From a virus (taxonomy: Duplodnaviria > Caudoviricetes), in IMG/VR virus record IMGVR_UViG_3300011517_000006, positions 1 through 64,000 of that record: DNA of 64,000 nt; one strand, given 5' to 3'. The position numbers and the translations under genes were made by a program. Under the pieces are notes generated by a model. It was not told the DNA's origin and did not search any database. It saw only the letters and a program-made list of their open reading frames with translations. Below, in pieces: positions 31,936-58,804 of the stretch (positions are counted from its first letter, which is position 1; each line of letters starts with the position of its first letter).

Positions 31936-33733
31936 CAGGCGGCTCGAACGCGGAAACCTCTGCAGGATCGGCCCCCAATCCGACCGGCCTCTCCAGCCAG
32001 GGGGTCAGGGGGACAGCCATGGCCCGGCTCTGGTGCATGCCGAAGCGCACCGGAGTAGGCAGCGCTCGCGGCGCATAGGCGTCGCCGAGGTCTGCCAGGT
32101 GCTCCAGCACCCCGCGCCAGTTGGCGTAGTGGGTTCCCGCCAGCGCCCGCGCGAGAGCGGGGTGGTTCGTAGAGATCACCAGCCATGGCCCGGGCCTGTC
32201 GTGACTGCCGTGACCGTTCTCGACCTTCAGGCCGAAGGTCTTCAACACCTTCTCATGGACGCCCGGGCTCTCCAGTTGCTCCTGGATCATCTCGCCGATG
32301 GTCAGGTGGCGATCCTTGGCGTGCTGGCCCGAGTTGATGGCCCATATCCGCGACAGACAGGCCTGCCCCGGATTCTGCGCGGCCGAGGTCTCCTCCCGGT
32401 TTCGGATCAGCGCCGACCACCTGGCCACCTCCTCCCGTGCCGTCTCGATCGTCAGCGCCTCATCGTGCAGCAGCAGCCTTCGCCCGGCGGCGAGCGCGGC
32501 GACCAGATCGGCTGCCCGGGGCGTCTGCCCGCTTTCCCCCAGCGCGGCCTTCAACAGACCTACGTCCGACCGGTATCGCTTGGCCTCGCGCACGGCGCGC
32601 GCCAGCAAGCGGGGGGACACCTCCCTTGCCCAGTCTATGGCTTCCTTCAGCGTTTCGTCGGCGCCGCCCTTGGCCTTGCCCAGCAGCCTCAACCGCACTT
32701 CGACCACCCGCGTGGCCATGGCGTCGCCCAGCTGCACCGGCAGGATGCTGGCCAGGTAGGCGGACCCCACGGCGGTCTGACCCGCAGTCCGTCCGCCCGT
32801 GTCGCCCTGACGCCGGGTCGATCCCTCGCCGGTCGACATGCGTCGCAGCACTTCCAACGCCTTCTCGACCGGCCCCTGCCCGTCCACGCTGGGCTCCGCC
32901 TCGTCCAGGTAGAGCGCCCGCGCCTCGCCGGACAAGCCGTTGCGCAGACCCGCCTCCGAGAAGCTGTCCAATAGATCCCCGGCGTTCGCGCTGCCTGCCG
33001 CCTGCAGCAGGCGCGACAACGTCGTCTTGCCGGCCCCTGCTCCGCCGCTCACGCTGGCGTGCGGCCTGAACGGCGGAATGGCGCCGAGCAGCGCGGTTCC
33101 CTGCCATCCGAACAGCGCGTCCGCCTCGCTGAGGCCATCGGGATCCCGAGGATCCAGCGGGGCGAAGTTCCACATGTTCATCAGCTCGCGCAGCTGCTCG
33201 CCCTCCGCGATGGTCGCGGGCTTGCCTGGCCTGGGGGCCGGGGGGCGCAGCAGCCACAAGGGACCGCGGTTGCGGGCGCCGTTCCTCAACGCCTCCGCCA
33301 CCGATTCCCAATCGTCATCGCCGAAGGGCCAACGGCCGACCGCGTCGCCGGCATGGACGACCGGACCGTCTATGGTCGACCACACCCCGTACCCACGCTG
33401 CGGCCGATCGCTGTCCCACCGGCCGGCCTTGCGGCATCGATCGACGAACCACTGGGCCGCCATGTCGCGCTGCAGCTTTCCATCGTTGTCGCGCCATTGG
33501 GCCAGGAACACCCGCCCCTCCAGGCTGACGAACAGGTCGGTCTTCAGCATGCCGGCGATCTTGGACGCCGGCTCGCGGCGCAACTCGCCCTCAGGCAGGG
33601 CGAAATGCACGTAACCGCCCTCGAACCCCAGCGGGATCACCGGACAGTCCTCGACCTTCGGCTCGATCCAGACGGCGCCGGACGCCGCCTCGCTGTCGGG
33701 ATCGGCGTCATCCATCACATAGGAATCGTTCAT
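31874..33733 (-). CDS. Phage replication P-loop ATPase/helicase
   Basis: Walker A GGAGAGKTT, Walker B LYLDEAE; coupled to the primase gene. Confidence 0.75.
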   Translation of the reverse strand: MNDSYVMDDADPDSEAASGAVWIEPKVEDCPVIPLGFEGGYVHFALPEGELRREPASKIAGMLKTDLFVSLEGRVFLAQWRDNDGKLQRDMAAQWFVDRCRKAGRWDSDRPQRGYGVWSTIDGPVVHAGDAVGRWPFGDDDWESVAEALRNGARNRGPLWLLRPPAPRPGKPATIAEGEQLRELMNMWNFAPLDPRDPDGLSEADALFGWQGTALLGAIPPFRPHASVSGGAGAGKTTLSRLLQAAGSANAGDLLDSFSEAGLRNGLSGEARALYLDEAEPSVDGQGPVEKALEVLRRMSTGEGSTRRQGDTGGRTAGQTAVGSAYLASILPVQLGDAMATRVVEVRLRLLGKAKGGADETLKEAIDWAREVSPRLLARAVREAKRYRSDVGLLKAALGESGQTPRAADLVAALAAGRRLLLHDEALTIETAREEVARWSALIRNREETSAAQNPGQACLSRIWAINSGQHAKDRHLTIGEMIQEQLESPGVHEKVLKTFGLKVENGHGSHDRPGPWLVISTNHPALARALAGTHYANWRGVLEHLADLGDAYAPRALPTPVRFGMHQSRAMAVPLTPWLERPVGLGADPAEVSAFEPPVWDGSGDRASRNASHGESHE

Positions 33734-35037
33734 GCGGACACGCCCCCGGCTACGCTCGCGGCGGCCTCGGCCGCCCTGATCACTTCGTTGAAATCCATGC
33801 CGATCGGCGGGCGCGAGACACGCACCTGCGTCGAACTTCCGGTGCTCAGGCGGCGGCTCCAGCTGGCCCGGGCCAAAGCGCCGCTCACGCGCGCCCGCTC
33901 GGCGCTGTCACGCACCGCCTCGATCATTCGCTTTTGCTGGCGCCCGCTACGTCCTTTGACCGTCACCGGGCTCATGTCGCCGTCGACGGCGATGTCGATC
34001 AGCCCCCACGGGTTCTCCGGATCCTCCGGCCAGGTGAAGCCGGGCCGCAAAGGATCCGCCCTGACCCGCCAGATGTCCCGTGCGCCATCCTTGTCGATGG
34101 CCTCGAAGCCGCTCAACCGATCCAGCGATCCCGCCGCAACCGCCCGAACCGGCCGGCTCAACGGCCCAGCCAGCATCATGGCCCGCGACGCCGCGTTCTC
34201 GACGCCCTCCGCCACCACGAGGGGGCCTGGGGCGTCCGGTCGCGTCAACCACAGCCCGCCCGGCAGCACATAGCCCTCGATGTCGCCATGCCGGTCCGGC
34301 CGGGGCGGCCCCGCCAGTCCGTCGCGACGCGCCAGCACGAAATGGCCCTGCGGCCCCAGCATCCGCTTCGCCGGCGACCGGTGCGTCTTCCCGCGCCCGT
34401 TGGGCGCCAGATAGGTGCAGTGCACGCCGCCGGTCGGACCCAGCTCCGTCATGACCAGAATGACCATCGCCGGCAGGAACACGCCCCGCTCCGGATGGCC
34501 GCTATGCCAGGTTCGCGGATTGAACCCGACCAGAGCCAGCATCCGCGCCGCGACGGGCCCCCGGATGCTCCGCGCCTCTTCCAGATAGACCTGCGCCAAC
34601 GACCCGGCCGCGGGCTCACGCTCGCGCCAGATCTTGCGCGCCATTTCCAACCGCCATGCGGCGTCGGCCAGCGCCTCGGCTTCGGCCTGTTTCGACGCCT
34701 GCGCACGCCGTGCGCGCGAAGCCTCGCTTTCGGGCTTCAACTCGCCGCCCATCAAACGGCGGGCCGCGTCGGCCATCGTCTCATCGCCGCCTGAGAACAG
34801 CCGATGCTCCAGATCGATCACATCGCCGCCGCGCGGGTCGCAGGAATAGCACTGCCAGCGCCGCCCATCGGCGGACACGCGGAACGGGGCTAGTTTGCTC
34901 TTGGCCCCGCATTCATTCAGGGGGCAGACGCCTCGATAGCCCTTGCCCGTCTTGCGCAGCTTGCACTTGGGCGCCCGGATCGCGATGTCCTCGCACCGGA
35001 CCGCCGCACGCGCCCTGTCGAACAGCTCGTCGCTCAT
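33730..35037 (-). CDS. DNA primase (CHC2 zinc finger plus toprim)
   Basis: GVCPL..C...WQCYSC..GGDVIDL; LVVAEGVE; IAVDGD. Confidence 0.85.
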   Translation of the reverse strand: MSDELFDRARAAVRCEDIAIRAPKCKLRKTGKGYRGVCPLNECGAKSKLAPFRVSADGRRWQCYSCDPRGGDVIDLEHRLFSGGDETMADAARRLMGGELKPESEASRARRAQASKQAEAEALADAAWRLEMARKIWREREPAAGSLAQVYLEEARSIRGPVAARMLALVGFNPRTWHSGHPERGVFLPAMVILVMTELGPTGGVHCTYLAPNGRGKTHRSPAKRMLGPQGHFVLARRDGLAGPPRPDRHGDIEGYVLPGGLWLTRPDAPGPLVVAEGVENAASRAMMLAGPLSRPVRAVAAGSLDRLSGFEAIDKDGARDIWRVRADPLRPGFTWPEDPENPWGLIDIAVDGDMSPVTVKGRSGRQQKRMIEAVRDSAERARVSGALARASWSRRLSTGSSTQVRVSRPPIGMDFNEVIRAAEAAASVAGGVSA

Positions 35038-35723
35038 GCCGCGATCTCCGCAGCCCTGACAGCGGCCTCGATCCGGAAGCAGGCGGTGTCGAAATGCTTC
35101 GGATCGATCTCGACCCCCGTGAACCTCAGGCCCCGCTTGATCGCCGCCACGCCGGTCGAACCGCTGCCCATGAAGGGGTCGCACACGTTCGCGGCGTTGA
35201 TGGTGGCCAACACCTTGTCCATGACCGGATCGGGCTTGACCGTCGGATGATCGACACCGGTGAAACGGCCGCTCTCGCTCAGGATCCACCGCGCCTTGTC
35301 GGTCAGGCTTCCGACCGGATGCGCGCCCGCCAGCCAGGCGTGAACCCAGAACTCCGTGTCCGGCCGATAGTGCTTGTTCGCCACCGGCAGCGGGTTGGTC
35401 TTGTGCCAAGCGCAGACGACGGTCCGATGGTACCGCGCAGCCAGACGCGGCAGCAGCTGGGGCAGCTGATCGTTATGACAGAACACCGCCACCGACCGGA
35501 ACGTGGCCGGCGAACAGATCCGATCGTCGAACCCCTGATCCAGCCCGGCCGCCGCGATCCGATCCATGTTCGGCCGGGCCTTGCGGAAGCGTCCTGCCCC
35601 GCGCGTGTTGAACGCATACGGCGGATCGAACACCCCCGCGTCCTGGGGGCCCAGGGTCCGCACCACCTCGTACCCGTCGCCCAGGTAAAGCGTCGCCGGC
35701 CCGATGACCTCGATCCGGCTCAT
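35034..35723 (-). CDS. DNA methyltransferase (beta-class N4/N6)
   Basis: FDPPY precedes HPTVKP and DPFMGSGSTG...GVEID. Confidence 0.9.
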   Translation of the reverse strand: MSRIEVIGPATLYLGDGYEVVRTLGPQDAGVFDPPYAFNTRGAGRFRKARPNMDRIAAAGLDQGFDDRICSPATFRSVAVFCHNDQLPQLLPRLAARYHRTVVCAWHKTNPLPVANKHYRPDTEFWVHAWLAGAHPVGSLTDKARWILSESGRFTGVDHPTVKPDPVMDKVLATINAANVCDPFMGSGSTGVAAIKRGLRFTGVEIDPKHFDTACFRIEAAVRAAEIAA

Positions 35724-36121
35724 GCCGCCGCCCCGCGCGAGGCTTCGATCTGTCGCCGCGCCTCGGCCTTGTTGGCCGCTGTCATGAAATAGCCCACGCC
35801 CCAGCGGGTGCCGATCTCGATCCCGAACGGCTTCAGCTTCCGCCGGATGTGGCAGACGAAGACGTCCACGATCTTCATCTCGGGCTCATCCTCGCCCCGG
35901 TCGCGGTAAAGCGCCGCCATCGCGGAGTCCTTCGTCAGCAGCTCGCGCTCCAGCAGGACCCCGAACAGTCGGGCCTGCTGGACGGTCAGCCCCCACTCCA
36001 GCGGCGGCAGGACGCACAGGCCCATCGCCTCCTCCAGCTCAACGATGCGGTCTTCCAGGCGCGTGATCGTGGCCTGCAGCGCGGCCTCGCGCGCAACGGG
36101 GTCAACCTGCTCGACGGCCAC
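35720..36121 (-). CDS. Receiver-less OmpR-type winged-helix protein, CtrA-like DNA-binding domain
   Basis: EPEMKIVDVFVCHIRRKL...IGTRWGVGY; N-terminal coiled coil in place of a receiver domain. Confidence 0.8.
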   Translation of the reverse strand: MAVEQVDPVAREAALQATITRLEDRIVELEEAMGLCVLPPLEWGLTVQQARLFGVLLERELLTKDSAMAALYRDRGEDEPEMKIVDVFVCHIRRKLKPFGIEIGTRWGVGYFMTAANKAEARRQIEASRGAAA

Positions 36122-37019
36122 GACGTTTCCCCTTCCGGTACAGAACGATGGCCAGGGCCTTCCACAGCGGCGTCTTGTGCGTAGCCGCGAAAACCGCAGC
36201 CTCCTGTTCCGCCGCCTCGCCCAGCGCCAGCATCGCGTTCGCCACCCCTTCCGCGTCGATGTCCTCGCGGTATTCCTCGTCGTGCAGCAGCGTCTCGACC
36301 GCCTTGATCTGACCCGCCGTCAACGGCTGCGCCCGCCCCTTCACCAGGGCCTCCAGCACCATGCGCGCCCGCATGGCGCCGCGCCGGTTGATCAGGGCGC
36401 CGATCGCTCGCACCGCGACCGTGTCTCCGATGGCCCAGACCCCGTTGCCTGGCTGGGCGCGCAGCACTCTCACCCCGGCGCGGGCGCAGACCTGGTCAAT
36501 TGTCAGGGCGTCCTCGTCCCCGGCCGCCGCCGCCGCGTAGTGCATCTGCATCGGTGTGATGTTCAGCCGGTCGCGGTTGTGGCCGATGAAGCTGTGGGCC
36601 CGCTCTGATCGGCTCGCCGCCTCGACCACCATCACCGGAATGGTGGTCACCATCGGATGGCTGCACGCAGCGATCGCCGTATGCTGGCCGTCGATCACCT
36701 CCAGCCCGCGCTCCGTCCGGGCGCAGACCGGCGGCTTGAACCGACGCCAGTCCCAGCGGGCGCAGATCTTGCGCACCAGCTTGATGGACCGCTCCGACAG
36801 GTTGCGCTGATACCCTTCATCGATCAGCAGCGTGCCTGGATCGACCCATTCGAACGTCGGCGACGCCGTCTCGGCCGCCCCGGCCTCGACCCCCGACAGA
36901 TTGATGGCCTTCACGCCCCTCAGGGCCTTCGACACCGCTGCGGCCGCCAACTCGGCGTGGCATGCGGCCACATAGCGGTCGTCCGCCTGGCGAAACGCTT
37001 GACTGCCCAGCTCCGTCAT
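36102..37019 (-). CDS. ParB/Srx-like domain protein (DUF6551-like)
   Basis: LLIDEGYQR...VIDGQHT motif. Confidence 0.72.
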   Translation of the reverse strand: MTELGSQAFRQADDRYVAACHAELAAAAVSKALRGVKAINLSGVEAGAAETASPTFEWVDPGTLLIDEGYQRNLSERSIKLVRKICARWDWRRFKPPVCARTERGLEVIDGQHTAIAACSHPMVTTIPVMVVEAASRSERAHSFIGHNRDRLNITPMQMHYAAAAAGDEDALTIDQVCARAGVRVLRAQPGNGVWAIGDTVAVRAIGALINRRGAMRARMVLEALVKGRAQPLTAGQIKAVETLLHDEEYREDIDAEGVANAMLALGEAAEQEAAVFAATHKTPLWKALAIVLYRKGKRRGRRAG

Positions 37020-37378
37020 CCGTCGATGTCCTTTCGCTCGCGGCGCGTCGCCGCGCCCTGATGTCCGGCCAGCGCCTCGCGCGCCGCCTGCGCCGCCGCC
37101 TTCAGCGGCCCCTGCAGCTCGCGGCGGCCGGCCGTGGTCTCGGCGCAGTACCGCCGCGACAGGCGCGACAGCTGCACGCACGGGTTCGATCGGGTGACCA
37201 CGCCCGGCGCGCAGGCGTTCTTGGCCTCATGGGCGACGCGGGCCAGCGCCGTCATCGGCTTGCTGGGGGCCGCCGCCGCTGCGGCCTCGGCCTGGGCGAT
37301 CAGTTCGTTCCAGCAGGCCTCGTCATTGGCCGTCATCCGGCCGTCGGGCCCGCCGCGCAGATTGCCGAAGCGGCTCAT
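37016..37378 (-). CDS. Hypothetical phage protein
   Basis: GGAGG SD; ATGA-type coupling; ends RKDIDG. Confidence 0.6.
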   Translation of the reverse strand: MSRFGNLRGGPDGRMTANDEACWNELIAQAEAAAAAAPSKPMTALARVAHEAKNACAPGVVTRSNPCVQLSRLSRRYCAETTAGRRELQGPLKAAAQAAREALAGHQGAATRRERKDIDG

Positions 37379-38779: not shown

Positions 38780-38846
38780 TTTTGTGCGTGATTCGCACAA
38801 AAAGAACAGCTAGGAAGTTCGCCTTATGAACGTGCGCGAGGCGAAC
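38780..38846. promoter_or_regulatory. Operator cluster between cro and cI (GTGCG-N5-CGCAC family)
   Basis: GTGCGtgattCGCAC 38784-38798, GTTCGccttaTGAAC 38817-38831, GTGCGcgaggCGAAC 38832-38846. Confidence 0.7.
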
Positions 38847-38867
38847 TTATTGGGGATAGGCGGTCTT

Positions 38868-39500
38868 ATGACCGTTCGACGCCCCACAAATCGCCTCGGC
38901 CGGCCCGAACTTCCAGTGGAAGAGGATACGGCTGGAGGGCGCCTGCGCGCACTCAGGAAGCTAGCTCGAGAAGACCAACAAGATCTTGCCGATGCTTTGG
39001 GCGTAAGCCGCACCCAAGTATCCAAGTACGAGAACGCCGGGCATGTAATGCCCGACTACATTATCGAGCGCGCCGCCCAACACTACGGGGTCACTCCCGC
39101 CTTTCTACGCTACGGAGATACCGACAACCGAATGGCCAAGGTGGTCGGACGCGTCGGCGCAGGCGGCCACGTCGAGGCCATCGAACAGCCGCCCTGGCGT
39201 TACGTCGAGGTCCCGGCGAGTTGGCGCGACGCGATTGCGCTCGAAGTCTCCGGCACCTCTTGTTGGCCGATCTACGACGACGGCGACGACATCGTCATCA
39301 GAGGCGAGCGACGCTTGATAGCTGAGGAAATCATCGGCCGGATGTGCGTTGTCGAAACAGTCGACGGCCTTGGGCTAGTTAAGCGTGTGCGGAAGGGAAC
39401 GCAGGAAGGCCTGTTCACACTTGAAAGCCCCAATGCGCCGCCGATCGAAGATGTGCAGCTCGCTAGCGGTCGCCCCGTGAAACTCCACGCCCCTCGCTAG
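38868..39500 (+). CDS. cI: CI-like repressor (XRE HTH plus S24 peptidase)
   Basis: QQDLADALGVSRTQVSKYEN; VGAG cleavage site; VSGTS and VKR catalytic motifs; alternative start 38826. Confidence 0.88.
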   Translation: MTVRRPTNRLGRPELPVEEDTAGGRLRALRKLAREDQQDLADALGVSRTQVSKYENAGHVMPDYIIERAAQHYGVTPAFLRYGDTDNRMAKVVGRVGAGGHVEAIEQPPWRYVEVPASWRDAIALEVSGTSCWPIYDDGDDIVIRGERRLIAEEIIGRMCVVETVDGLGLVKRVRKGTQEGLFTLESPNAPPIEDVQLASGRPVKLHAPR

Positions 39501-39859
39501 TTCAAAAGATGCAAGCATCTCAAGTCCAAGTCTGAGCAACGCTCCTCGACGATCAACGGCTCTACCACCACTCCTCCAGTCGTGATCATCTGGCACTCGA
39601 TCACACGAGGCGGGCCGTGAGAGAGGGTGCGGGGCGGGTGAATCCCCGGCGTCCGCGCGCCCGCTACTCCGCCCTCCCTGGCCTTGATCCATGCCAAGTT
39701 ACAGGTTTGACCGGGTCGTTCATCTAACCCAGCCAACTGCACAGCCAAATCGCCACGCTGCTCTCTCGTCGTCGCATCCTCGTGTGCCGCGAACATCACA
39801 GCAGCCACGCCCGCGAAAAGCAGCAGAACACAACCAACCGCCCAATTAGACTTCTTCAT
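39497..39859 (-). CDS. Membrane-anchored protein convergent with cI
   Basis: N-terminal TM; Cys-containing periplasmic-like part; GGAG SD. Confidence 0.55.
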   Translation of the reverse strand: MKKSNWAVGCVLLLFAGVAAVMFAAHEDATTREQRGDLAVQLAGLDERPGQTCNLAWIKAREGGVAGARTPGIHPPRTLSHGPPRVIECQMITTGGVVVEPLIVEERCSDLDLRCLHLLN

Positions 39860-39950
39860 CGTGGCCCCTCCGCGCCCCTCCTTTGTGCGCGATTCAGCAC
39901 CGCCATGATAGGCGACCAATGAATTCCAAAGCGTCACATAACGCCAATAA

Positions 39951-39998
39951 GTGCGCTTGACGCACATACAAAAGCAGACATATGTTCGCGTTACGCAC
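39951..39998 (+). promoter_or_regulatory. Early promoter with two operators (pL/OL analogue)
   Basis: GTGCGcttgaCGCAC overlapping TTGACG (-35); GTTCGcgttaCGCAC at 39984-39998. Confidence 0.72.
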
Positions 39999-40015
39999 AT
40001 AACGCGGAGGCCTCC

Positions 40016-40546
40016 ATGGCCCAGTCTGATCTACCTGCCTTCGAAGCCGTACTCCGCTCGCCCCAGGGCGAGATACGGGTTTGGCTTGAGCCTGCGACGA
40101 ACCCGGACGCAGAGGCGCACGCCGTGCGCACTCGCCTGCGCATCGACTACGGCGACGAAGCCGACCGTCTTGTTCACGACCAGGCCGCCCTGCGCCTGGT
40201 CGCCCAGCTGACCCGCGCCGTGCGCGGCCTGTCCGGCGCAGGCACGGCCGAGACCGCCGCCGTCGCCGCCGCCCCCAGCGTCGGCCCATGGCTAGTCGAG
40301 CGCACCGAGGCCGAGCCGACGACGCGCACCCTCGTCGCCCATCTGTTTCAGGACTACCTCGCCTGGTGCGACCGACGCGCCTTCACGCCCCTGTCCCGTT
40401 TCGACTTCGGCCGCGAGCTGGAGCAGCGCGGCTTCCCCTCCGCAGGCAAGATTCGTCAGGGCGCGACCCAGGGTCATGCGCGCGGCGGCCTGCGCCTGCG
40501 GCCGGTCGCTGTCGGGTCGGCTCTCAAGACGGGAGACGCCCGATGA
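40016..40546 (+). CDS. Protein with a D5/primase-C-terminal-like winged helix
   Basis: LFQDYLAWC.....PLSRFDFGRELEQRGF...RGGLRL motif. Confidence 0.6.
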   Translation: MAQSDLPAFEAVLRSPQGEIRVWLEPATNPDAEAHAVRTRLRIDYGDEADRLVHDQAALRLVAQLTRAVRGLSGAGTAETAAVAAAPSVGPWLVERTEAEPTTRTLVAHLFQDYLAWCDRRAFTPLSRFDFGRELEQRGFPSAGKIRQGATQGHARGGLRLRPVAVGSALKTGDAR

Positions 40547-41522: not shown

Positions 41523-43499
41523 ATGGCTTCCCCTGCCCTGCGCGAAATGCGCGAGGCCGACTTCCCGGCCGTCGTGCACACCTACACCGACGTCCTGCGC
41601 CTTCTGCGTGATCAGCCGCAAGGCGACGCGGGCCATCTGGCCCGCCTGACCGGCCGTGACGGCTCGAACGTCCGCCGCGACATGCACAAGCTGGTCGACG
41701 CCGGCGTCGTCCAACACGACGGGGCCTGCTGGATCCTGACCGACAAGGGCCGTCAATGGGTCGCCGGCCAGGACGTGGCCGAGGGTCTGATTTCGCCCGA
41801 CGGTTCCGCGGTTCCGGTCACCCGCTGTCCCATCGATCAGATCCGGCCCAACCCGGCCAACCGCCCGATCGACCCCGAGACCATTCCCGACCTGGCCCTG
41901 TCGATCATCGGCGCGGACGACGTGCTCCAGCCCCTGATCCTGACCCCGCCCGACGCGAACGGCGTGCGCATGATCCTGGCCGGCGAGCGTCGCTGGCGCG
42001 CTGTCCGCCACATCATGGAAACGGGCAGCACCCTGCCCGCCGCCCTGACGCCCGGCGTCCCCTTCGTCGAGCGCGAGGCGACCGAGGCCGAGGCTCTGCA
42101 GATCACCATCATCGAGAACAGCCAGCGCCAGGACCTCTCGCCATGGGAAGACGCCCAGCTGCTGCTGCAGCTGCAGGCCGCCACCGGCTGGAACGCCTCC
42201 GAGCTGGCCCGCAACATCGGCCGCGCGGCCGAGGGCGAACGCTCCGGGCTGCGCGACGTCCAGACCAAGCTGAAGGTCGCCCGCGAGGCCTCCCCCGCCG
42301 CCATCGCCGCCTATCTCGACAACGGCAGCTGGGACCAGCTGCGCAGCAGCGTCAGCCAGCCCAAGGCCACGACGCTCTCCGACCAGGTCGCCGAGTACGG
42401 CGCGGCCAGCCTCAAGCCCGGCGAACCCACCCCGCTTGAGCAGGCGATCGAGGAGGCGCAGCAGCTTTACACCGTCGCCGATTTCGGCGTCCCGGCCGAT
42501 TGGAAGGCCGACGACTTGGGCGCGGCGGCAGCCTGGCTGGAGACCGGCACCCTCGAGATGCTGACCTGCACTGACGGCAGGGTCAGCGCCACCATCTATG
42601 TGGCTCAGCTCAAAGGCGGCGCTTGCTGGCTGAACGGCACGTCGCACACCGCCGCGACGTCCGGCCACTCCTCCAGCCTGAATGGCGTCTGGAGATCCGC
42701 CGCCCCGGCCTTCGTGAGCCGGAAACGCGCGATTGAAGCGGCCGCCGCCTACCTCAAGCTCACCTACGGGGCGCACCTGACCAAGCGCATCCGGGATTGG
42801 CTCAGCGACCCAGAAGGCGCGCCGACCGGCCCCCATGTTGTAAACGGGATCGACTACGGCAACGCCACCCGCGCAAACGAAGCGCGCTACGCCGCCGGCA
42901 TCCTCCAGCGCCCGGCCGCCAACTACGGCTCAGCATCCCGCAGGGATCCGCCCGCGCCCGCCGCCGAACCCGGCGACGCCGACACGCCCGCGCCGGCGTC
43001 CTCCGCCCGCGAAGAACTGGCCGAACAACGCCTCGAGCGCCTCGGCGCGGCCCTGCAGGTCCTGACCGAGCGGCTCGAGCCCCTGCTCGCCGTCCTGCGC
43101 GGCGACCGCACCGACGACGGCCTGGTCACGCTCGAGACCGACGACGCCGAGTACTACGAGCGCGAGATCTCCGAGGCCTGTCAGTGGGCCGAGGACGCCC
43201 TGGCCGACACCAGCACCGTCTTCGACGGCTGGGGCGAGGAGACGCCGCGCCCGGACCTGGGCGCGCCTGCCGTGCCGATCCGCCAGTCGATCACGGCGGA
43301 CCACATCGTCTGTCTCGAGGACGGCCGCAAGTTCAAGTCGCTGAAGCGCCACCTGCGCACCCGCTACAACCTCTCGCCGGAAGAGTACCGCCGGCGCTGG
43401 GGTCTCCCGGCCGACTACCCCATGGTCGCGCCCAACTACGCCAAGGCGCGCGAGGATCTGGTCCGCCGGATGGCCCTCGGCCTGGCGGGGACGCGCTGA
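41523..43499 (+). CDS. wHTH - ParB (CTPase) - HTH - MucR/Ros zinc-finger fusion protein
   Basis: ParB box [10 protein letters not shown] and [14 protein letters not shown]; C-terminal [44 protein letters not shown]. Confidence 0.88.
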
Positions 43500-43933
43500 T
43501 GTCCGCCCGCCCCTGGATCGAAGGCGCCGCCCTTCTGGCCGCCCATCACCGCGCCGCACCGGCGCCCCGAACTCTTCACCGCAGGAGCTATCCCGTGTCC
43601 CCCGACGTCCGCTTCGCCCTGCTCAGGGCTGACCCCCAGAACCAGCAGTCGGCCAAACCTCTGGCCTTTCCCGACATCGGCGCCCTGGCGCGCCACATTC
43701 AGCGCGAACGCGCCGGACGCTCGATCGAGCTGGTCGACATCGAGGACCTGCGCTTCGACGGCGACGCCAACATGCGCGAGGGCGTCTCGGTCTACGTCCT
43801 GGACCTCGGCGGCGATCGCGACGGCCTGATCGGCCACTGCTGGCTTGACGGCCAGGGGCAGGACGCCCTGCGCCACGCCCTCGCCCGCAACCAGCTGGCG
43901 AGCATCAGCGCCCCTTCGGCGAGGGCCGCCTGA
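43499..43933 (+). CDS. Hypothetical phage protein
   Basis: TGATG coupling; typical codon usage. Confidence 0.6.
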   Translation: MSARPWIEGAALLAAHHRAAPAPRTLHRRSYPVSPDVRFALLRADPQNQQSAKPLAFPDIGALARHIQRERAGRSIELVDIEDLRFDGDANMREGVSVYVLDLGGDRDGLIGHCWLDGQGQDALRHALARNQLASISAPSARAA

Positions 43934-48401: not shown

Positions 48402-50030
48402 GTGATCCGCGTCGCCCTTTACGCTCGCTACAGCTCGGACCGACAGAACGAGCGCTCGATCTCCGATCAGTTGAGCCTCCTGATCCAGCACGCCGGCGCC
48501 AAGGGCTGGGCCGTCGTCGGCACCTACACCGACGCCGCCATTTCCGGCTCGGCCATGGCGAATCGCCCCGGGCTTCTCGCAGCGCTCGCTGCGGCCGAAC
48601 GGGGCGAGTTCGACCTGCTGCTGGCGGAAGACGAAGACCGTCTCGCCCGCAACCTGGAACACTTGGCGCACGTGGCCAACCGCCTGGCCGACATCGGCGC
48701 CGGCATCGCCACCCTGTCGACGGACCGGGTCCAGGACATGCACGTCGCCTTCAAGGGGCTCATCGCTCAGGACTTCATTCGCAACCTCAGCATGAAGACC
48801 AAGCGCGGTATGGCCTCCAATGCGGAGAAGGGGCTCGCGACCGGCTCGCGCCTTTACGGCTATCGCTCCCAGCCCGGCGGCGCGGTCGAGATTGTGCCCG
48901 ACCAGGCCGAGGTGGTCCGGCGCATCTTCTCCATGTACGTCAACGATCGCATGTCCTCGCGCGAGATCGCTGAACGCCTCAACCGCGACAGGATACCCTC
49001 TCCGGCCGGCCGGGAATGGAACGCCTCATCCATTCAGGGCTCGCGCCAGCGCGCCAACGGCATCCTGCACAGCGAGATCTACGCCGGCGTAAAGGTCTAC
49101 AACCGCGTCGAGATGCGAAAGGACCGCCAGACGGGGCGTAAGATCACGATCTGCAAGCCGCCCAGCGAGCACAAGCGCATCGACGTCCCCCACCTGGCCA
49201 TCATCGACCAGGACCTGTGGAACGCCGCCCGGCAGCGCCTGGACAGCCGGCAGACGGCCGACCCTTCGCAGCGCGCAAGCCTGCGGCGGCGCCCGGGCCT
49301 GCTGTCCGGGCTGACCAAGTGCGGCTGCTGCGGGGCGTCCTACACCTCACTCAGCCAGGGGCGCCTGGTCTGCGCCGCCTATCGTGAGAAGGGCGTGTCC
49401 GCCTGCAATAACAACCGCCACGTCAAGCGCGCCGAGATCGAGCAGCGCGTGCTGGACGGCCTGCGCACGCGGCTGCTGGCCCCCGAGGCCATCGCCGCCT
49501 ACGTCCGCGCCTATCACGCCGCCTGGGCCGAGCAGGCCGCCCAGGTCGAAGACCGCCGCCGCCCTCTGACGCGGCGGCTGGCCGAGGTCGAGCGCGCGAT
49601 CGAGCGCGGGGCCGAAGCCCTGCTCTCCGGTGCGACGGCGGCCGCCGTCATCGGCAAGAAGCTCGAAGCCCTCGAAATCGAACAGGCCCAGCTCAAGGCG
49701 ACCCTTGAACAGCTCGACGCTGAAGGCGCGCCGCCCGTGCAGCTGCACCCGCGCGCGGCCGAGAACTACGCCCGCAAGATCGAGCAGCTCCAGGCGCGCC
49801 TGGCCGAGGCGGCCGGCAGCACCGACGACGCGGACAGAGACCTGATCGGCAGCGTCAGGGGCCTGATCCAGAAGGTGGACATCGAGCCGATCAACAAATC
49901 GAGAGGATCGCCGGTGCGGGTCACCTTGCACGGTGACCTCGCCCGGTTCGTTCTCCCGCAACACCCACCAGCTAGTGGGTGTGCGTTGGTGGTTGGAGGC
50001 GGGATCGAACCGCCGACCTGTGGGTTATGA
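48402..50030 (+). CDS. int: Large serine recombinase (integrase of prophage 1)
   Basis: ALYARYSS catalytic Ser, DRLAR, recombinase domain, LLSGLTKCGCCG zinc ribbon, coiled coil; 3' end runs through the att core. Confidence 0.95.
   Translation: MIRVALYARYSSDRQNERSISDQLSLLIQHAGAKGWAVVGTYTDAAISGSAMANRPGLLAALAAAERGEFDLLLAEDEDRLARNLEHLAHVANRLADIGAGIATLSTDRVQDMHVAFKGLIAQDFIRNLSMKTKRGMASNAEKGLATGSRLYGYRSQPGGAVEIVPDQAEVVRRIFSMYVNDRMSSREIAERLNRDRIPSPAGREWNASSIQGSRQRANGILHSEIYAGVKVYNRVEMRKDRQTGRKITICKPPSEHKRIDVPHLAIIDQDLWNAARQRLDSRQTADPSQRASLRRRPGLLSGLTKCGCCGASYTSLSQGRLVCAAYREKGVSACNNNRHVKRAEIEQRVLDGLRTRLLAPEAIAAYVRAYHAAWAEQAAQVEDRRRPLTRRLAEVERAIERGAEALLSGATAAAVIGKKLEALEIEQAQLKATLEQLDAEGAPPVQLHPRAAENYARKIEQLQARLAEAAGSTDDADRDLIGSVRGLIQKVDIEPINKSRGSPVRVTLHGDLARFVLPQHPPASGCALVVGGGIEPPTCGL
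49975..50002. repeat. Right att junction of prophage 1
   Basis: attP arm GTGGGTGTGCGT followed by the 16-bp core shared with 1594-1609. Confidence 0.92.
49987..50030 (-). tRNA. 3' half of a tRNA with CAT anticodon (Met or Ile2); att fragment of prophage 2
   Basis: TCATAA-CCCAC-AGGTC-GGCGG-TTCGATC-CCGCC-TCCAACC-A-CCA; the 5' half is absent. Confidence 0.9.
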
Positions 50031-57359: not shown

Positions 57360-57803
57360 ATGAACGACTTCTCCCCCGCTCTTCTGAAGGCGCACTTCGG
57401 CCAGCTGGTCGACGCCGTCGGCACCCAAGAAGCGGCCGCCGCATTCCTCGGCGTCAGCCGTCAGCGCGTCGGCCAGTTGATCAGCACGGCGAACAACGAC
57501 CTGCCGACCTGGGCGCAGGTGTGGAAGCTGGAAAAGGTGACGGGACAATCGCTGGTCTTCGGCGCGTTCGGTCGCATGACGGCGGGCGAAGAGGCCCACA
57601 CCGGCGCCCTAACCGCTGCAGTCGAAAGCACCGCCACGGCGACCCGCGCCCTTCAGGCCGTCCACGCGGCCAAGGCCGATGGCGTCATCGAGCAACACGA
57701 GGTCGAGGCTGTGCGCGACGCGGCGCGAGACAACCTGATCGCCGCCCAGCGCCAATACGACGAGAGCATGCGCTTGCGCTCGACAGCGGGAGCTGATGCA
57801 TGA
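57360..57803 (+). CDS. CII-like regulator
   Basis: AAAAFLGVSRQRVGQL HTH; position after cro. Confidence 0.6.
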   Translation: MNDFSPALLKAHFGQLVDAVGTQEAAAAFLGVSRQRVGQLISTANNDLPTWAQVWKLEKVTGQSLVFGAFGRMTAGEEAHTGALTAAVESTATATRALQAVHAAKADGVIEQHEVEAVRDAARDNLIAAQRQYDESMRLRSTAGADA

Positions 57804-58804
57804 TCCAGATCGACCGGATCACGACCTTCGACCGCGTCCGTCAGGCGGATCGCAAGCAGGTTGAAGCCTTGGCGGAAAGCATCCGCGAGGTCGGGCTGCT
57901 CAACCCCATCGCGGTGGCGCCGGATGGCGAGGGCTATGCCCTGATCGCCGGGATGCACCGGCTGGAAGCTGCGCGCCTGCTCGGCTGGACGGAAATCCCG
58001 GCCACCGTGCTGGCGCTGGATCAGCATCGCCGGATCATCGCCGAGTGCGACGAAAACCTGTGCGCGCCGTCCCTGACGCCCGCCGAACGCGCTGAGTTCA
58101 CGCGCCGCCGTAAGGCTGCATATGAGGCGCTGCACCCGGAGACGCGGGCTGATGCGCCAAAGGGCAATCAATATGCTTCTCGCCAAGTTGGCGACAAGCA
58201 ACCGGCGCCCCGCTTCACCGCCGATACCGCCGCCGCCACGGGCCAATCTGAGCGGGCCGTTCAGCGCGACGCCGAGCGGGGCGAGAAGGTCTCTGACGAA
58301 GCTCTGGCGCTGATCAAGGGGACCCGCCTCGACACCGGGCGCTACCTCGACAGCATCAAGAACCTGTCGCCCGCGGATCAGGTGGCGAAGGTGGAAGCGG
58401 ACCTGACACCGCCCTCTGAAGGCGTCGAAAAACGGGACACGCACCCCGCCGAACCTGTCGAGCCCATCGACCCCGCCGAAGCCAAGGCTCGTCGCGAGAT
58501 CGCCCAACTCCCCGACGAGGCCAAGGTCGACGAGATCGTCGGCCTACGCGCTGAAGTCATCGACCTCCGCAAAGCGGTCAAGGAACATAAAGCCAACACC
58601 GCCAGGCTGAAAACCCAGTTGAAGGGCCACGAGGGCGACAAGGACGACACGATCCGGGCGCTCCAAAGGAAGCTGGACCACGCGAACAGCGAGATGTTCC
58701 GCGCCAAGGAGGAGGCTGCGCGCGTCCTTCGCCACAACCACGTCCTGAAGAAGGAAATCGACAAGCTCAAGGCTGAGATCGAGAACCAGGTGTTCCAGCT
58801 TTGA
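57800..58804 (+). CDS. ParB N-terminal domain protein with coiled-coil tail
   Basis: LAESIREVGLLNPI, LIAGMHRLEA, ECDENL.....LTPAE. Confidence 0.85.
   Translation: MIQIDRITTFDRVRQADRKQVEALAESIREVGLLNPIAVAPDGEGYALIAGMHRLEAARLLGWTEIPATVLALDQHRRIIAECDENLCAPSLTPAERAEFTRRRKAAYEALHPETRADAPKGNQYASRQVGDKQPAPRFTADTAAATGQSERAVQRDAERGEKVSDEALALIKGTRLDTGRYLDSIKNLSPADQVAKVEADLTPPSEGVEKRDTHPAEPVEPIDPAEAKARREIAQLPDEAKVDEIVGLRAEVIDLRKAVKEHKANTARLKTQLKGHEGDKDDTIRALQRKLDHANSEMFRAKEEAARVLRHNHVLKKEIDKLKAEIENQVFQL

Follow-up and report, generated by a model that had tools for sequence, protein, structure and literature searches.

On whose DNA would a phage protein act that joins a ParB-type module to a near copy of a host silencer's DNA-binding finger? 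The question is raised by a gene at 41523–43499 (plus strand) of a 64,000-nucleotide stretch from a caudoviricete virus (IMG/VR record IMGVR_UViG_3300011517_000006, positions 1 to 64,000; hereafter the window), which belongs to an 88-kb provirus record (G000). The predicted protein carries a winged helix-turn-helix (wHTH), a ParB_N nucleotide-binding fold and a helix-turn-helix (HTH) in its first 280 residues, and ends in the DNA-binding domain of MucR/Ros. An initial annotation, made from the sequence alone, had read it as a ParB clamp that loads at MucR sites; the comparative evidence points instead to a phage-specific palindrome of 15 bp that recurs along the phage's own genome. Host comparisons were made with Brevundimonas diminuta BD39 and 120 other Brevundimonas genomes.

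A palindrome array on the phage genome

A scan for perfect palindromes, filtered for conservation in related prophages, identified GCGCACG[C/G]CGTGCGC. A generic repeat scan of 38–50 kb returned only GC-rich noise. The array and its two copies nearest to our argument are as follows.

2685–44713, unstranded: array of the 15-bp palindrome GCG[C/A]ACGNCGT[G/T]CGC
41955–41969, unstranded: copy inside the fusion gene (GCGAACGGCGTGCGC), encoding the conserved ANGVR of ParB_N
40115–40129, unstranded: perfect copy (GCGCACGCCGTGCGC) within the operon's first gene, some 130 bp downstream from the early promoter

The prophage holds 12–13 copies (8 perfect and 5 with one mismatch), all between 2.7 and 44.7 kb, which start at 2685, 11406, 13835, 19855, 20797, 25359, 27196, 29320, 34701, 40115, 41955 and 44699, with a near copy at 32588. 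They are spaced 0.9–8.7 kb apart, about one per 3.5 kb. With up to two mismatches allowed, the window has 15 matches where 3.5 are expected, and none of 100 shuffles reached that number. The palindrome is absent from 45–64 kb of the window and from the neighbouring prophage (50–64 kb, and on to 88 kb in the record); that prophage has a ParB_N protein of its own (334 residues, 57800–58804, E 6e-13). Host DNA is almost free of the sequence as well: eight of the nine palindromes in BD39 (3.4 Mb) lie inside the closely related 42-kb prophage and one in the remaining 3.36 Mb, which rules out a host-wide repeat.

Twelve of the 13 copies are intragenic, in varied frames and with flanks that are not conserved. 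The copy inside the fusion gene has equivalents in two related loci (L008 and L012), and the one at 40115 is conserved in two others (L004 and L005). Eight of the 12 intragenic copies stand in codon frame 0, where they spell Ala-His/Asn-Gly/Ala-Val-Arg on the coding strand, whichever that is; the palindrome seems to be written into genes with preferred codons ending in G or C. Our literature search found the palindrome in no paper, and the sites appear to be undescribed.

The palindrome travels with the ParB module

All 11 IMG/VR records that encode a relative of the fusion protein (38–81% identity) carry 5–12 copies of GCG[C/A]ACGNCGT[G/T]CGC, and the reversed pattern, our control, occurs in these records zero times. 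The reverse test used 34 viral contigs (30 kb or longer) selected solely for having at least one perfect copy, a sample from the matches listed and not a census. Among the matches listed, a homologue of residues 1–280 was present in all five multi-site contigs (two or more copies) versus two of the 29 single-site contigs (Fisher p 7.5e-5). Two further multi-site records, G136 and G139, have eight copies each and homologues that are 28–33% identical. When all frames of at least 40 codons from window positions 1–50.1 kb were compared with six divergent site-bearing records, the frame of the fusion gene, through its ParB module, was the sole one matched in all six, and G136 matches nothing else. 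A second ParB-like gene in the window (36105–37181) was considered as the palindrome binder and ruled out: it is absent from the complete phages G125 (10 sites) and G130 (7 sites), and is not co-conserved with the array.

The half-sites differ between lineages that differ at residue 244, in the putative recognition helix of the HTH. Where this residue is arginine, half-sites read GCGCACG (16 of 16 in G136, 16 of 16 in G139 and 20 of 24 in the window); lineages with Lys244 have GCGAACG half-sites only (14 of 14 in G130, 10 of 10 in G131). Orientation is a separate matter: in G139 (L188–L190) seven of eight palindromes have the central G on one strand, a possible bias that is not seen in the window.

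These comparisons suggest that the palindrome is likely to be the cognate site of the wHTH–ParB–HTH module. Because the array is phage-restricted and co-occurs with the module, the clamp probably loads on phage DNA, and that DNA, rather than host MucR sites, is probably what the conserved module primarily targets. A spacing of a few kilobases over 45 kb suits a protein that loads and spreads, as do ParB, Noc, KorB and VirB.

The palindromes might alternatively serve another factor, packaging or recombination, with the protein being an unrelated accessory or anti-defence factor whose business end is its middle domain. That domain is swapped among near-identical proteins, as in arms-race or specificity modules; prophage ParB_N fusions have been suggested for anti-defence (PMC12704722), and the complete phage G138 bears two sites but no detectable module. 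Against this stand the significant association of site and module, the status of the module as the sole frame common to six divergent site-bearing phages, and the lack or near-lack of sites in the neighbouring prophage and the host chromosome (one copy outside the prophage in BD39), and we regard the account as improbable, the least likely of those considered here.

Architecture of the fusion protein

The protein was dissected with Pfam, an AlphaFold2 (AF2) model, whose confidence is given as the predicted local distance difference test (pLDDT), and Foldseek. The wHTH, the GERRWRA motif, the HTH, the middle region and the MucR/Ros domain that the initial annotation had described were all recovered.

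41523–43499, plus strand: gene for the wHTH–ParB_N–HTH–middle domain–helices–MucR protein (P0001, 658 residues)
41565–41738, plus strand: N-terminal winged helix, residues ~15–72 (sub-cut-off Pfam, AF2, Foldseek)
41820–42125, plus strand: ParB_N nucleotide-binding fold, residues 100–201 (Pfam, Foldseek, family invariants)
41847–41867, plus strand: divergent Box I, PNPANRP, within ParB_N
41982–42002, plus strand: Box II, GERRWRA, residues 154–160, within ParB_N
within 42108–42137, plus strand: Box III, ENSQR (ENSQRQDL, residues 198–205), at the end of ParB_N
42141–42353, plus strand: ParB-type HTH DNA-binding domain, residues ~207–277 (Foldseek: 6t1f, Noc, KorB)
42249–42272, plus strand: putative recognition helix including LRDVQTKL, with R244, inside the HTH
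42465–42812, plus strand: variable (mosaic) middle domain, beta-sheet plus helix (AF2 pLDDT 86)
42828–42929, plus strand: linear motif GPHVVNGxDYxNATRAxEAR...NYG, residues 436–469 (GPHVVNGxDYxNATRAxEAR, 436–457; near-invariant columns)
43002–43211, plus strand: two long helices, residues 494–526 and 539–563, in place of the MucR N-terminal domain (AF2)
43245–43481, plus strand: MucR/Ros DNA-binding domain, residues 575–653 (Pfam, Ros87 match, identity to host MucR)

The open reading frame has a third-position GC content of 0.90 and zero internal stops. ParB_N (residues 100–201; E 4e-9, 36.7 bits versus a cut-off of 26.3) and ROS_MUCR (residues 575–653; E 1.5e-32, profile positions 45–123 of 123) are the sole Pfam matches above cut-off in the 658-residue protein. 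The N-terminal wHTH falls just below the cut-offs (HVO_A0114, 26.0 versus 27.6 bits; IclR HTH, 21.3 versus 22); AF2 models it as helix–helix–helix–strand–strand at pLDDT 72–88, and Foldseek matched it to the wHTH regulators 3cuo and 9e6a. Modelled residues ~96–290 superpose on the C. crescentus ParB–parS structure 6t1f (E 1e-8, template modelling (TM) score 0.69, 200 columns), and also on Noc and on KorB 8qa9 (Foldseek E 3e-7 for KorB). A sequence search of solved structures returned Spo0J/ParB/Noc for the N-terminal half and Ros87 (2jsp, E 1.8e-25) for the C terminus; the MucR part of the full-length AF2 model is of low confidence (pLDDT 40–69).

In an alignment of 32 relatives, N110, P111, N113, R114, G154, E155, R157, W158 and R202 are invariant. 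Boxes II and III are intact and invariant across the family. In Box I, where CTP-hydrolysing ParBs have NPxQPR, the protein has NPANR, of which N113 and R114 do not vary. A recent survey of orphan ParB-fold fusions reports binding of CTP, ATP or GTP, with a specificity that sequence and AlphaFold3 do not reliably predict (PMC12704722), and the label 'CTPase clamp' in the initial annotation is a reasonable prediction rather than a finding.

Pfam detects no canonical ParB C-terminal dimerisation domain, and the C-terminal half consists of the middle domain, the helices and the MucR finger. In the model the two long helices form a candidate dimerisation stalk, through which the protein could possibly dimerise. 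No ParA accompanies the gene: PF13614 and PF01656 have no match in the 88-kb provirus record, and neither do the neighbourhoods of relatives contain a ParA. With no ParA and no C-terminal dimerisation domain the protein is not a canonical partition ParB, and without an oligomerisation domain it is not a silencer of the MucR family; the most fitting label is orphan ParB-fold fusion protein.

The absence of ParA, together with two DNA-binding specificities in one protein, would also suit a tether in which the ParB module sits on the phage palindromes and the finger on the AT-rich nucleoid, so that excised or unintegrated genomes hitch-hike without ParA, an idea that the initial annotation had offered too. 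Expression on infection or induction would coincide with the episomal phase of the genome. The phage integrates, through a serine integrase, and completes its lytic cycle quickly; a dozen sites strewn along the genome do not look like a centromere, and variants without the finger would need another route of tethering. We judge such a tether very unlikely.

A host-type MucR finger

The fused MucR domain and the chromosomal MucR of B. diminuta share 73% identity. Aligned to Ros, its zinc ligand positions are C597, D600, H610 and Y615, that is, Cys-Asp-His-Tyr and not Cys2His2. The same four residues occur in 31 of 31 Brevundimonas chromosomal MucRs (the single copy of BD39 and 30 others), and 43 of 46 fused domains have this host signature; those of a few other lineages have Cys-Cys-His-His or Cys-Asp-His-His. 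A Cys-Asp-His2 sphere and zinc-free DNA-binding variants are known in the MucR/Ros family (PMC9779718). That the Asp and Tyr ligands make the finger degenerate or non-functional is ruled out by the identical residues in host MucRs. The finger is thus host-type, as had been annotated, and the description 'near-canonical' holds for the ligands in the sense of canonical for Brevundimonas; it does not extend to a Cys2His2 sphere or to the terminal basic tail, which is missing.

This tail (GGRKPAR..KK) is present in 31 of 31 host MucRs and missing in 46 of 46 fused domains; this protein retains the basic N-terminal stretch PAVPIRQSI and the basic residues of the finger helix. Also absent, in agreement with the initial annotation, is the MucR N-terminal oligomerisation domain: the Pfam match begins at profile position 45 and the hhalign alignment at host residue 33, and the first helix of host MucR (LLEMTADIVSAYV) has no counterpart. 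A hidden version of the domain within the two pre-finger helices is unsupported, as hhalign reaches only host residue 33. In MucR this N-terminal region is required for oligomerisation, silencing and normal regulation, and basic regions of MucR/Ros stabilise DNA contacts (PMC7710501). With neither the oligomerisation domain nor the basic tail, the fused finger should recognise DNA of the kind that MucR binds, yet should not bridge or polymerise as MucR does. It is the best-kept segment of the family, 74–95% identical versus ~53% for ParB_N by segment-wise BLAST, which argues for a working DNA-binding domain.

A finger this close to host MucR, with equal ligand positions, raises the possibility of action in trans, in which the protein would bind MucR sites on the host chromosome and, in concert with the phage's CtrA-like and methylase genes, rewire the MucR/CtrA cell-cycle regulon. 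The phage does encode a receiver-less CtrA-type winged helix and a DNA methyltransferase, and GapR-like genes occur in related prophages. The ParB module, however, has phage-restricted sites, with 1 copy in 3.36 Mb of non-prophage host DNA; conservation of the family does not extend to the CtrA-like and methylase genes, the finger is missing from many members, and a lone finger without oligomerisation domain or basic tail should compete poorly genome-wide. Rewiring of the host regulon therefore seems quite unlikely.

A constant module with exchangeable C termini

A search of 5.8 billion proteins returned 143 relatives, of which 46 have the MucR finger. Full-length relatives (45–97% identity) that retain the Pfam pair lie on many contigs, mostly of Brevundimonas, and the fusion gene is syntenic in eight related loci (L004, L005 and L008–L013), which excludes the frameshift, one-off fusion or assembly artefact that the initial annotation had named among its grounds for refutation; the architecture is conserved in many prophages and is under selection.

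Segment-wise BLAST and the alignment of 32 members resolve the protein into a constant wHTH–ParB_N–HTH module (residues 1–280) and variable parts. The C terminus takes three forms: two helices with the MucR finger, a second winged helix with a small domain, and a helical domain; the alternative forms have no Pfam match. As two thirds of the family have other C termini, MucR targeting is an accessory trait, and the core function lies elsewhere.

The middle domain is swapped between proteins with 96–98% identical flanks. In six relatives (P0007–P0012) the segment corresponding to 42303–42812 of the window is replaced by unrelated or 45%-identical sequence, a pattern of recombinational domain swapping that is typical of specificity or arms-race modules. 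Searches with the domain gave no clear relative: Foldseek against the PDB found nothing at E<=0.001, a wide VIA-align search peaked at a Z of 5.0 and gave weak rows resembling dsRBD, WGR and AP2 but no clear fold match, a protein atlas had no usable match, and a representative-library search returned only members of the same family. Next to it, the GPHVVNGxDYxNATRAxEAR...NYG motif is near-invariant in members with and without the finger alike, and may be a docking peptide for a partner.

Genome setting and expected timing

The phage is a temperate Brevundimonas prophage. To the left of the fusion gene the minus strand carries a Cro-like gene, the second ParB-like gene, the receiver-less CtrA-type winged helix, the DNA methyltransferase, a primase-like replication gene, terminase and structural genes. 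On the plus strand a CI/LexA-type repressor is followed by a block that holds small genes, the fusion gene, a TetR-like gene and a large serine integrase.

38783–38799: perfect operator copy between cro and cI
38826–39500, plus strand: CI/LexA-type repressor (HTH_3 and Peptidase_S24)
39950–39999, plus strand: early rightward promoter-like site, TTGACG-18-TATGTT at 39957–39986 (sigma-70-like match)
39950–39966 and 39983–39999: operator-like palindromes, TGTGCG-N5-CGCACA, overlapping the promoter
43499–43933, plus strand: gene for a 144-residue protein downstream of the fusion gene, overlapping both neighbours (TGATG, ATGA)
48402–50030, plus strand: large serine integrase, at the end of the rightward block

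The site at 39957–39986 is the only sigma-70-like match in 38.5–44.5 kb, and operator matches with at most one mismatch number 3 versus 0.47 expected. An operator-overlapped promoter upstream of the block points to a repressor-controlled early operon, which we infer to be the counterpart of lambda pL; synthesis of the fusion protein would then begin with infection or induction, and the lysogen would not make it. In distant relatives, too, the gene lies between CI/S24 repressor and integrase and points the same way as the integrase, whether that enzyme is of the serine or the tyrosine type. The AT-richest islands of the prophage coincide with its switch region, its early promoter and the beginning of the late operon.

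The downstream 144-residue protein, which has no Pfam match, is 77–91% identical in L004, L005 and L010, and 77% in L010 despite a ParB part of only 26% identity. L010, a related prophage, also encodes a GapR_DNA-bd protein (L010:4169–4465) three genes 3′ of its ParB–MucR gene, another look-alike of a host nucleoid protein in the same operon. Between the repressor and the early promoter, a small minus-strand gene in a stretch of lower GC content (39497–39859) begins with a membrane- or signal-like helix (MKKSNWAVGCVLLLFAG...) and may be a moron expressed in the lysogen. In the Cro-side operon, positions 35034–37181 (minus strand) hold the second ParB-like gene (phrog_1033), the CtrA-type winged helix (Trans_reg_C) and the methyltransferase, which is of the N6/N4 type.

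A proposed mechanism

We propose that the protein would work as an orphan phage nucleotide switch of the ParB family, with no ParA partner. It would be produced from the repressor-controlled early operon upon induction or infection. Its constant wHTH–ParB_N–HTH module would read the palindrome that is kept about every 3.5 kb on the phage genome, and the protein would load specifically on phage DNA and probably spread over it, at a site spacing that would let it cover the whole genome. The helical stalk would present a host-type finger devoid of oligomerisation domain and basic tail, and this finger, concentrated on phage DNA, would most likely occupy AT-rich promoter islands that host MucR otherwise binds or bridges. 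The outcome would be a self-targeted counter-silencer, like VirB against H-NS, or alternatively a clamp with a built-in latch, the finger halting it at AT-rich islands as KorA does for KorB. The C-terminal module would be the cargo of a chassis, and in one third of the family that cargo is the MucR finger.

Such a cis-targeted competitor of MucR, whether counter-silencer or KorA-like latch, is the reading that we tentatively prefer, at somewhat less than even confidence. The more specific proposal, that sliding clamps loaded at a dozen self-sites carry a decoy MucR finger and counter-silence in cis only, sparing the host regulon, is more doubtful. The data do not separate activation from repression.

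Several observations weigh against these proposals. The covariation of residue 244 with the half-site amounts to about one evolutionary event, and G125, an arginine lineage, has mixed sites. The complete phage G138 has its two sites and no detectable module. Box I is without the QPR of CTP-hydrolysing ParBs, and clamp closure lacks a C-terminal dimerisation domain recognisable in the Pfam scan. The finger does without the terminal basic tail said to stabilise Ros–DNA contacts (PMC7710501), and it is missing from two thirds of the family, the core function of which is independent of it. Of the 13 palindromes checked, none lies close to an AT-rich island except the copy at 40115.

The same array could serve the opposite end, with the protein acting like KorB as a global repressor or timer of phage genes. 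ParB self-association and the helical stalk would replace the missing MucR oligomerisation domain, and the protein would spread from the palindromes and clamp AT-rich phage promoters with the finger, so that late genes would be delayed or lysogeny favoured. Palindromes dispersed over the protein's own replicon do resemble the dispersed KorB operators of RK2 (PMC11790492), the Foldseek match to KorB 8qa9 and the palindrome just inside the protein's own operon fit, and the second wHTH among the alternative C termini means that the C terminus is usually a DNA binder. But 12 of the 13 sites are intragenic, away from promoters, a KorA-like partner was not identified, and an early-made silencer of the lytic programme is less intuitive; we consider global repression unlikely.

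Relation to known systems

In fold and in the layout of its sites, the nearest known system is KorB of the IncP plasmid RK2, a ParB-family CTPase and global regulator (PDB 8qa8/8qa9; PMC11790492). The two proteins share the ParB_N and HTH folds, a regulatory role beyond partition (predicted for the fusion protein) and palindromic sites with a central C/G scattered over their own element, of which there are 12–13 here and 5–12 in relatives. Unlike the fusion protein, KorB has the ParA protein IncC, a separate latch, KorA, and a C-terminal dimerisation domain, and its operators are often at promoters, whereas the palindromes here are mostly intragenic. The phage protein, for its part, adds an N-terminal wHTH and carries the MucR finger in cis as a further DNA binder.

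By proposed function the nearest is VirB of the Shigella plasmid pINV, also an orphan ParB-fold protein on a mobile element that faces a xenogeneic silencer of AT-rich DNA (PMC10164555; bioRxiv 10.64898/2025.12.19.695565). As a ParB-family CTP switch that counter-silences H-NS, VirB may by analogy serve as the functional model for our best explanation. VirB uses few sites and is not known to carry a copy of the silencer's DNA-binding domain.

MucR/Ros proteins (Ros87, PDB 2jsp; PMC9410896, PMC7710501) share with the fusion protein the DNA-binding finger, including Cys-Asp-His-Tyr as in the host; in the phage the finger lacks the oligomerisation domain and basic tail and ends a ParB-type protein of 658 residues. 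A review of MucR states that 'MucR carrying additional domains ... remain unexplored' (PMC7710501). Stand-alone MucR homologues that are small and not fused to ParB occur in Mesorhizobium phage Cp1R7A-A1 and Erythrobacter phage ZS04. The 133-residue homologue of ZS04 (PV416405.1; L044:3986–4387) is annotated 'ParB-like partition protein', a name probably carried over from fused forms.

The prophage orphan ParB-CTPase-fold fusions surveyed by Kaljevic et al. in 2025 (PMC12704722) resemble the family in having ParB_N, no ParA and lineage-specific fused domains. That survey highlights fusions to methyltransferases, DUF3850 and DUF4417 and gives no cognate sites, and its text and seven supplement files do not mention ROS_MUCR or PF05443. 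None of the isolated phages in INPHARED has the full-length fusion, and our literature search found no paper that links ParB and MucR within one protein. The architecture, which the initial annotation could not place among characterised proteins, accordingly appears to be undescribed; we found no characterisation of it in print.

Implications

Research on ParB-fold switches with roles beyond partition is still young; its worked examples are KorB, VirB and Noc, and a broad survey appeared in 2025. Most orphan phage members have no known DNA site or job. The family described here has a predicted 15-bp site in two natural variants that follow an Arg/Lys exchange in the recognition helix. Its expression context is defined, and its C terminus is naturally swapped between MucR finger, second winged helix and helical domain, which makes the family directly testable.

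MucR is the xenogeneic silencer of alphaproteobacteria, and little is settled about how mobile elements evade it; a 2025 paper calls the mechanisms of MucR anti-silencing unknown (PMC12560781). A phage protein with a captured host MucR finger is an obvious anti-MucR candidate. If counter-silencing in cis is true, it would be the first phage mechanism directed against MucR, and the protein the first ParB clamp with a latch or effector DNA-binding domain built in, on which swappable C-terminal modules would retarget one chassis. And if the clamp coats phage DNA from dispersed sites, it would show how a virus can discriminate its own DNA from that of its host for the purpose of regulation.

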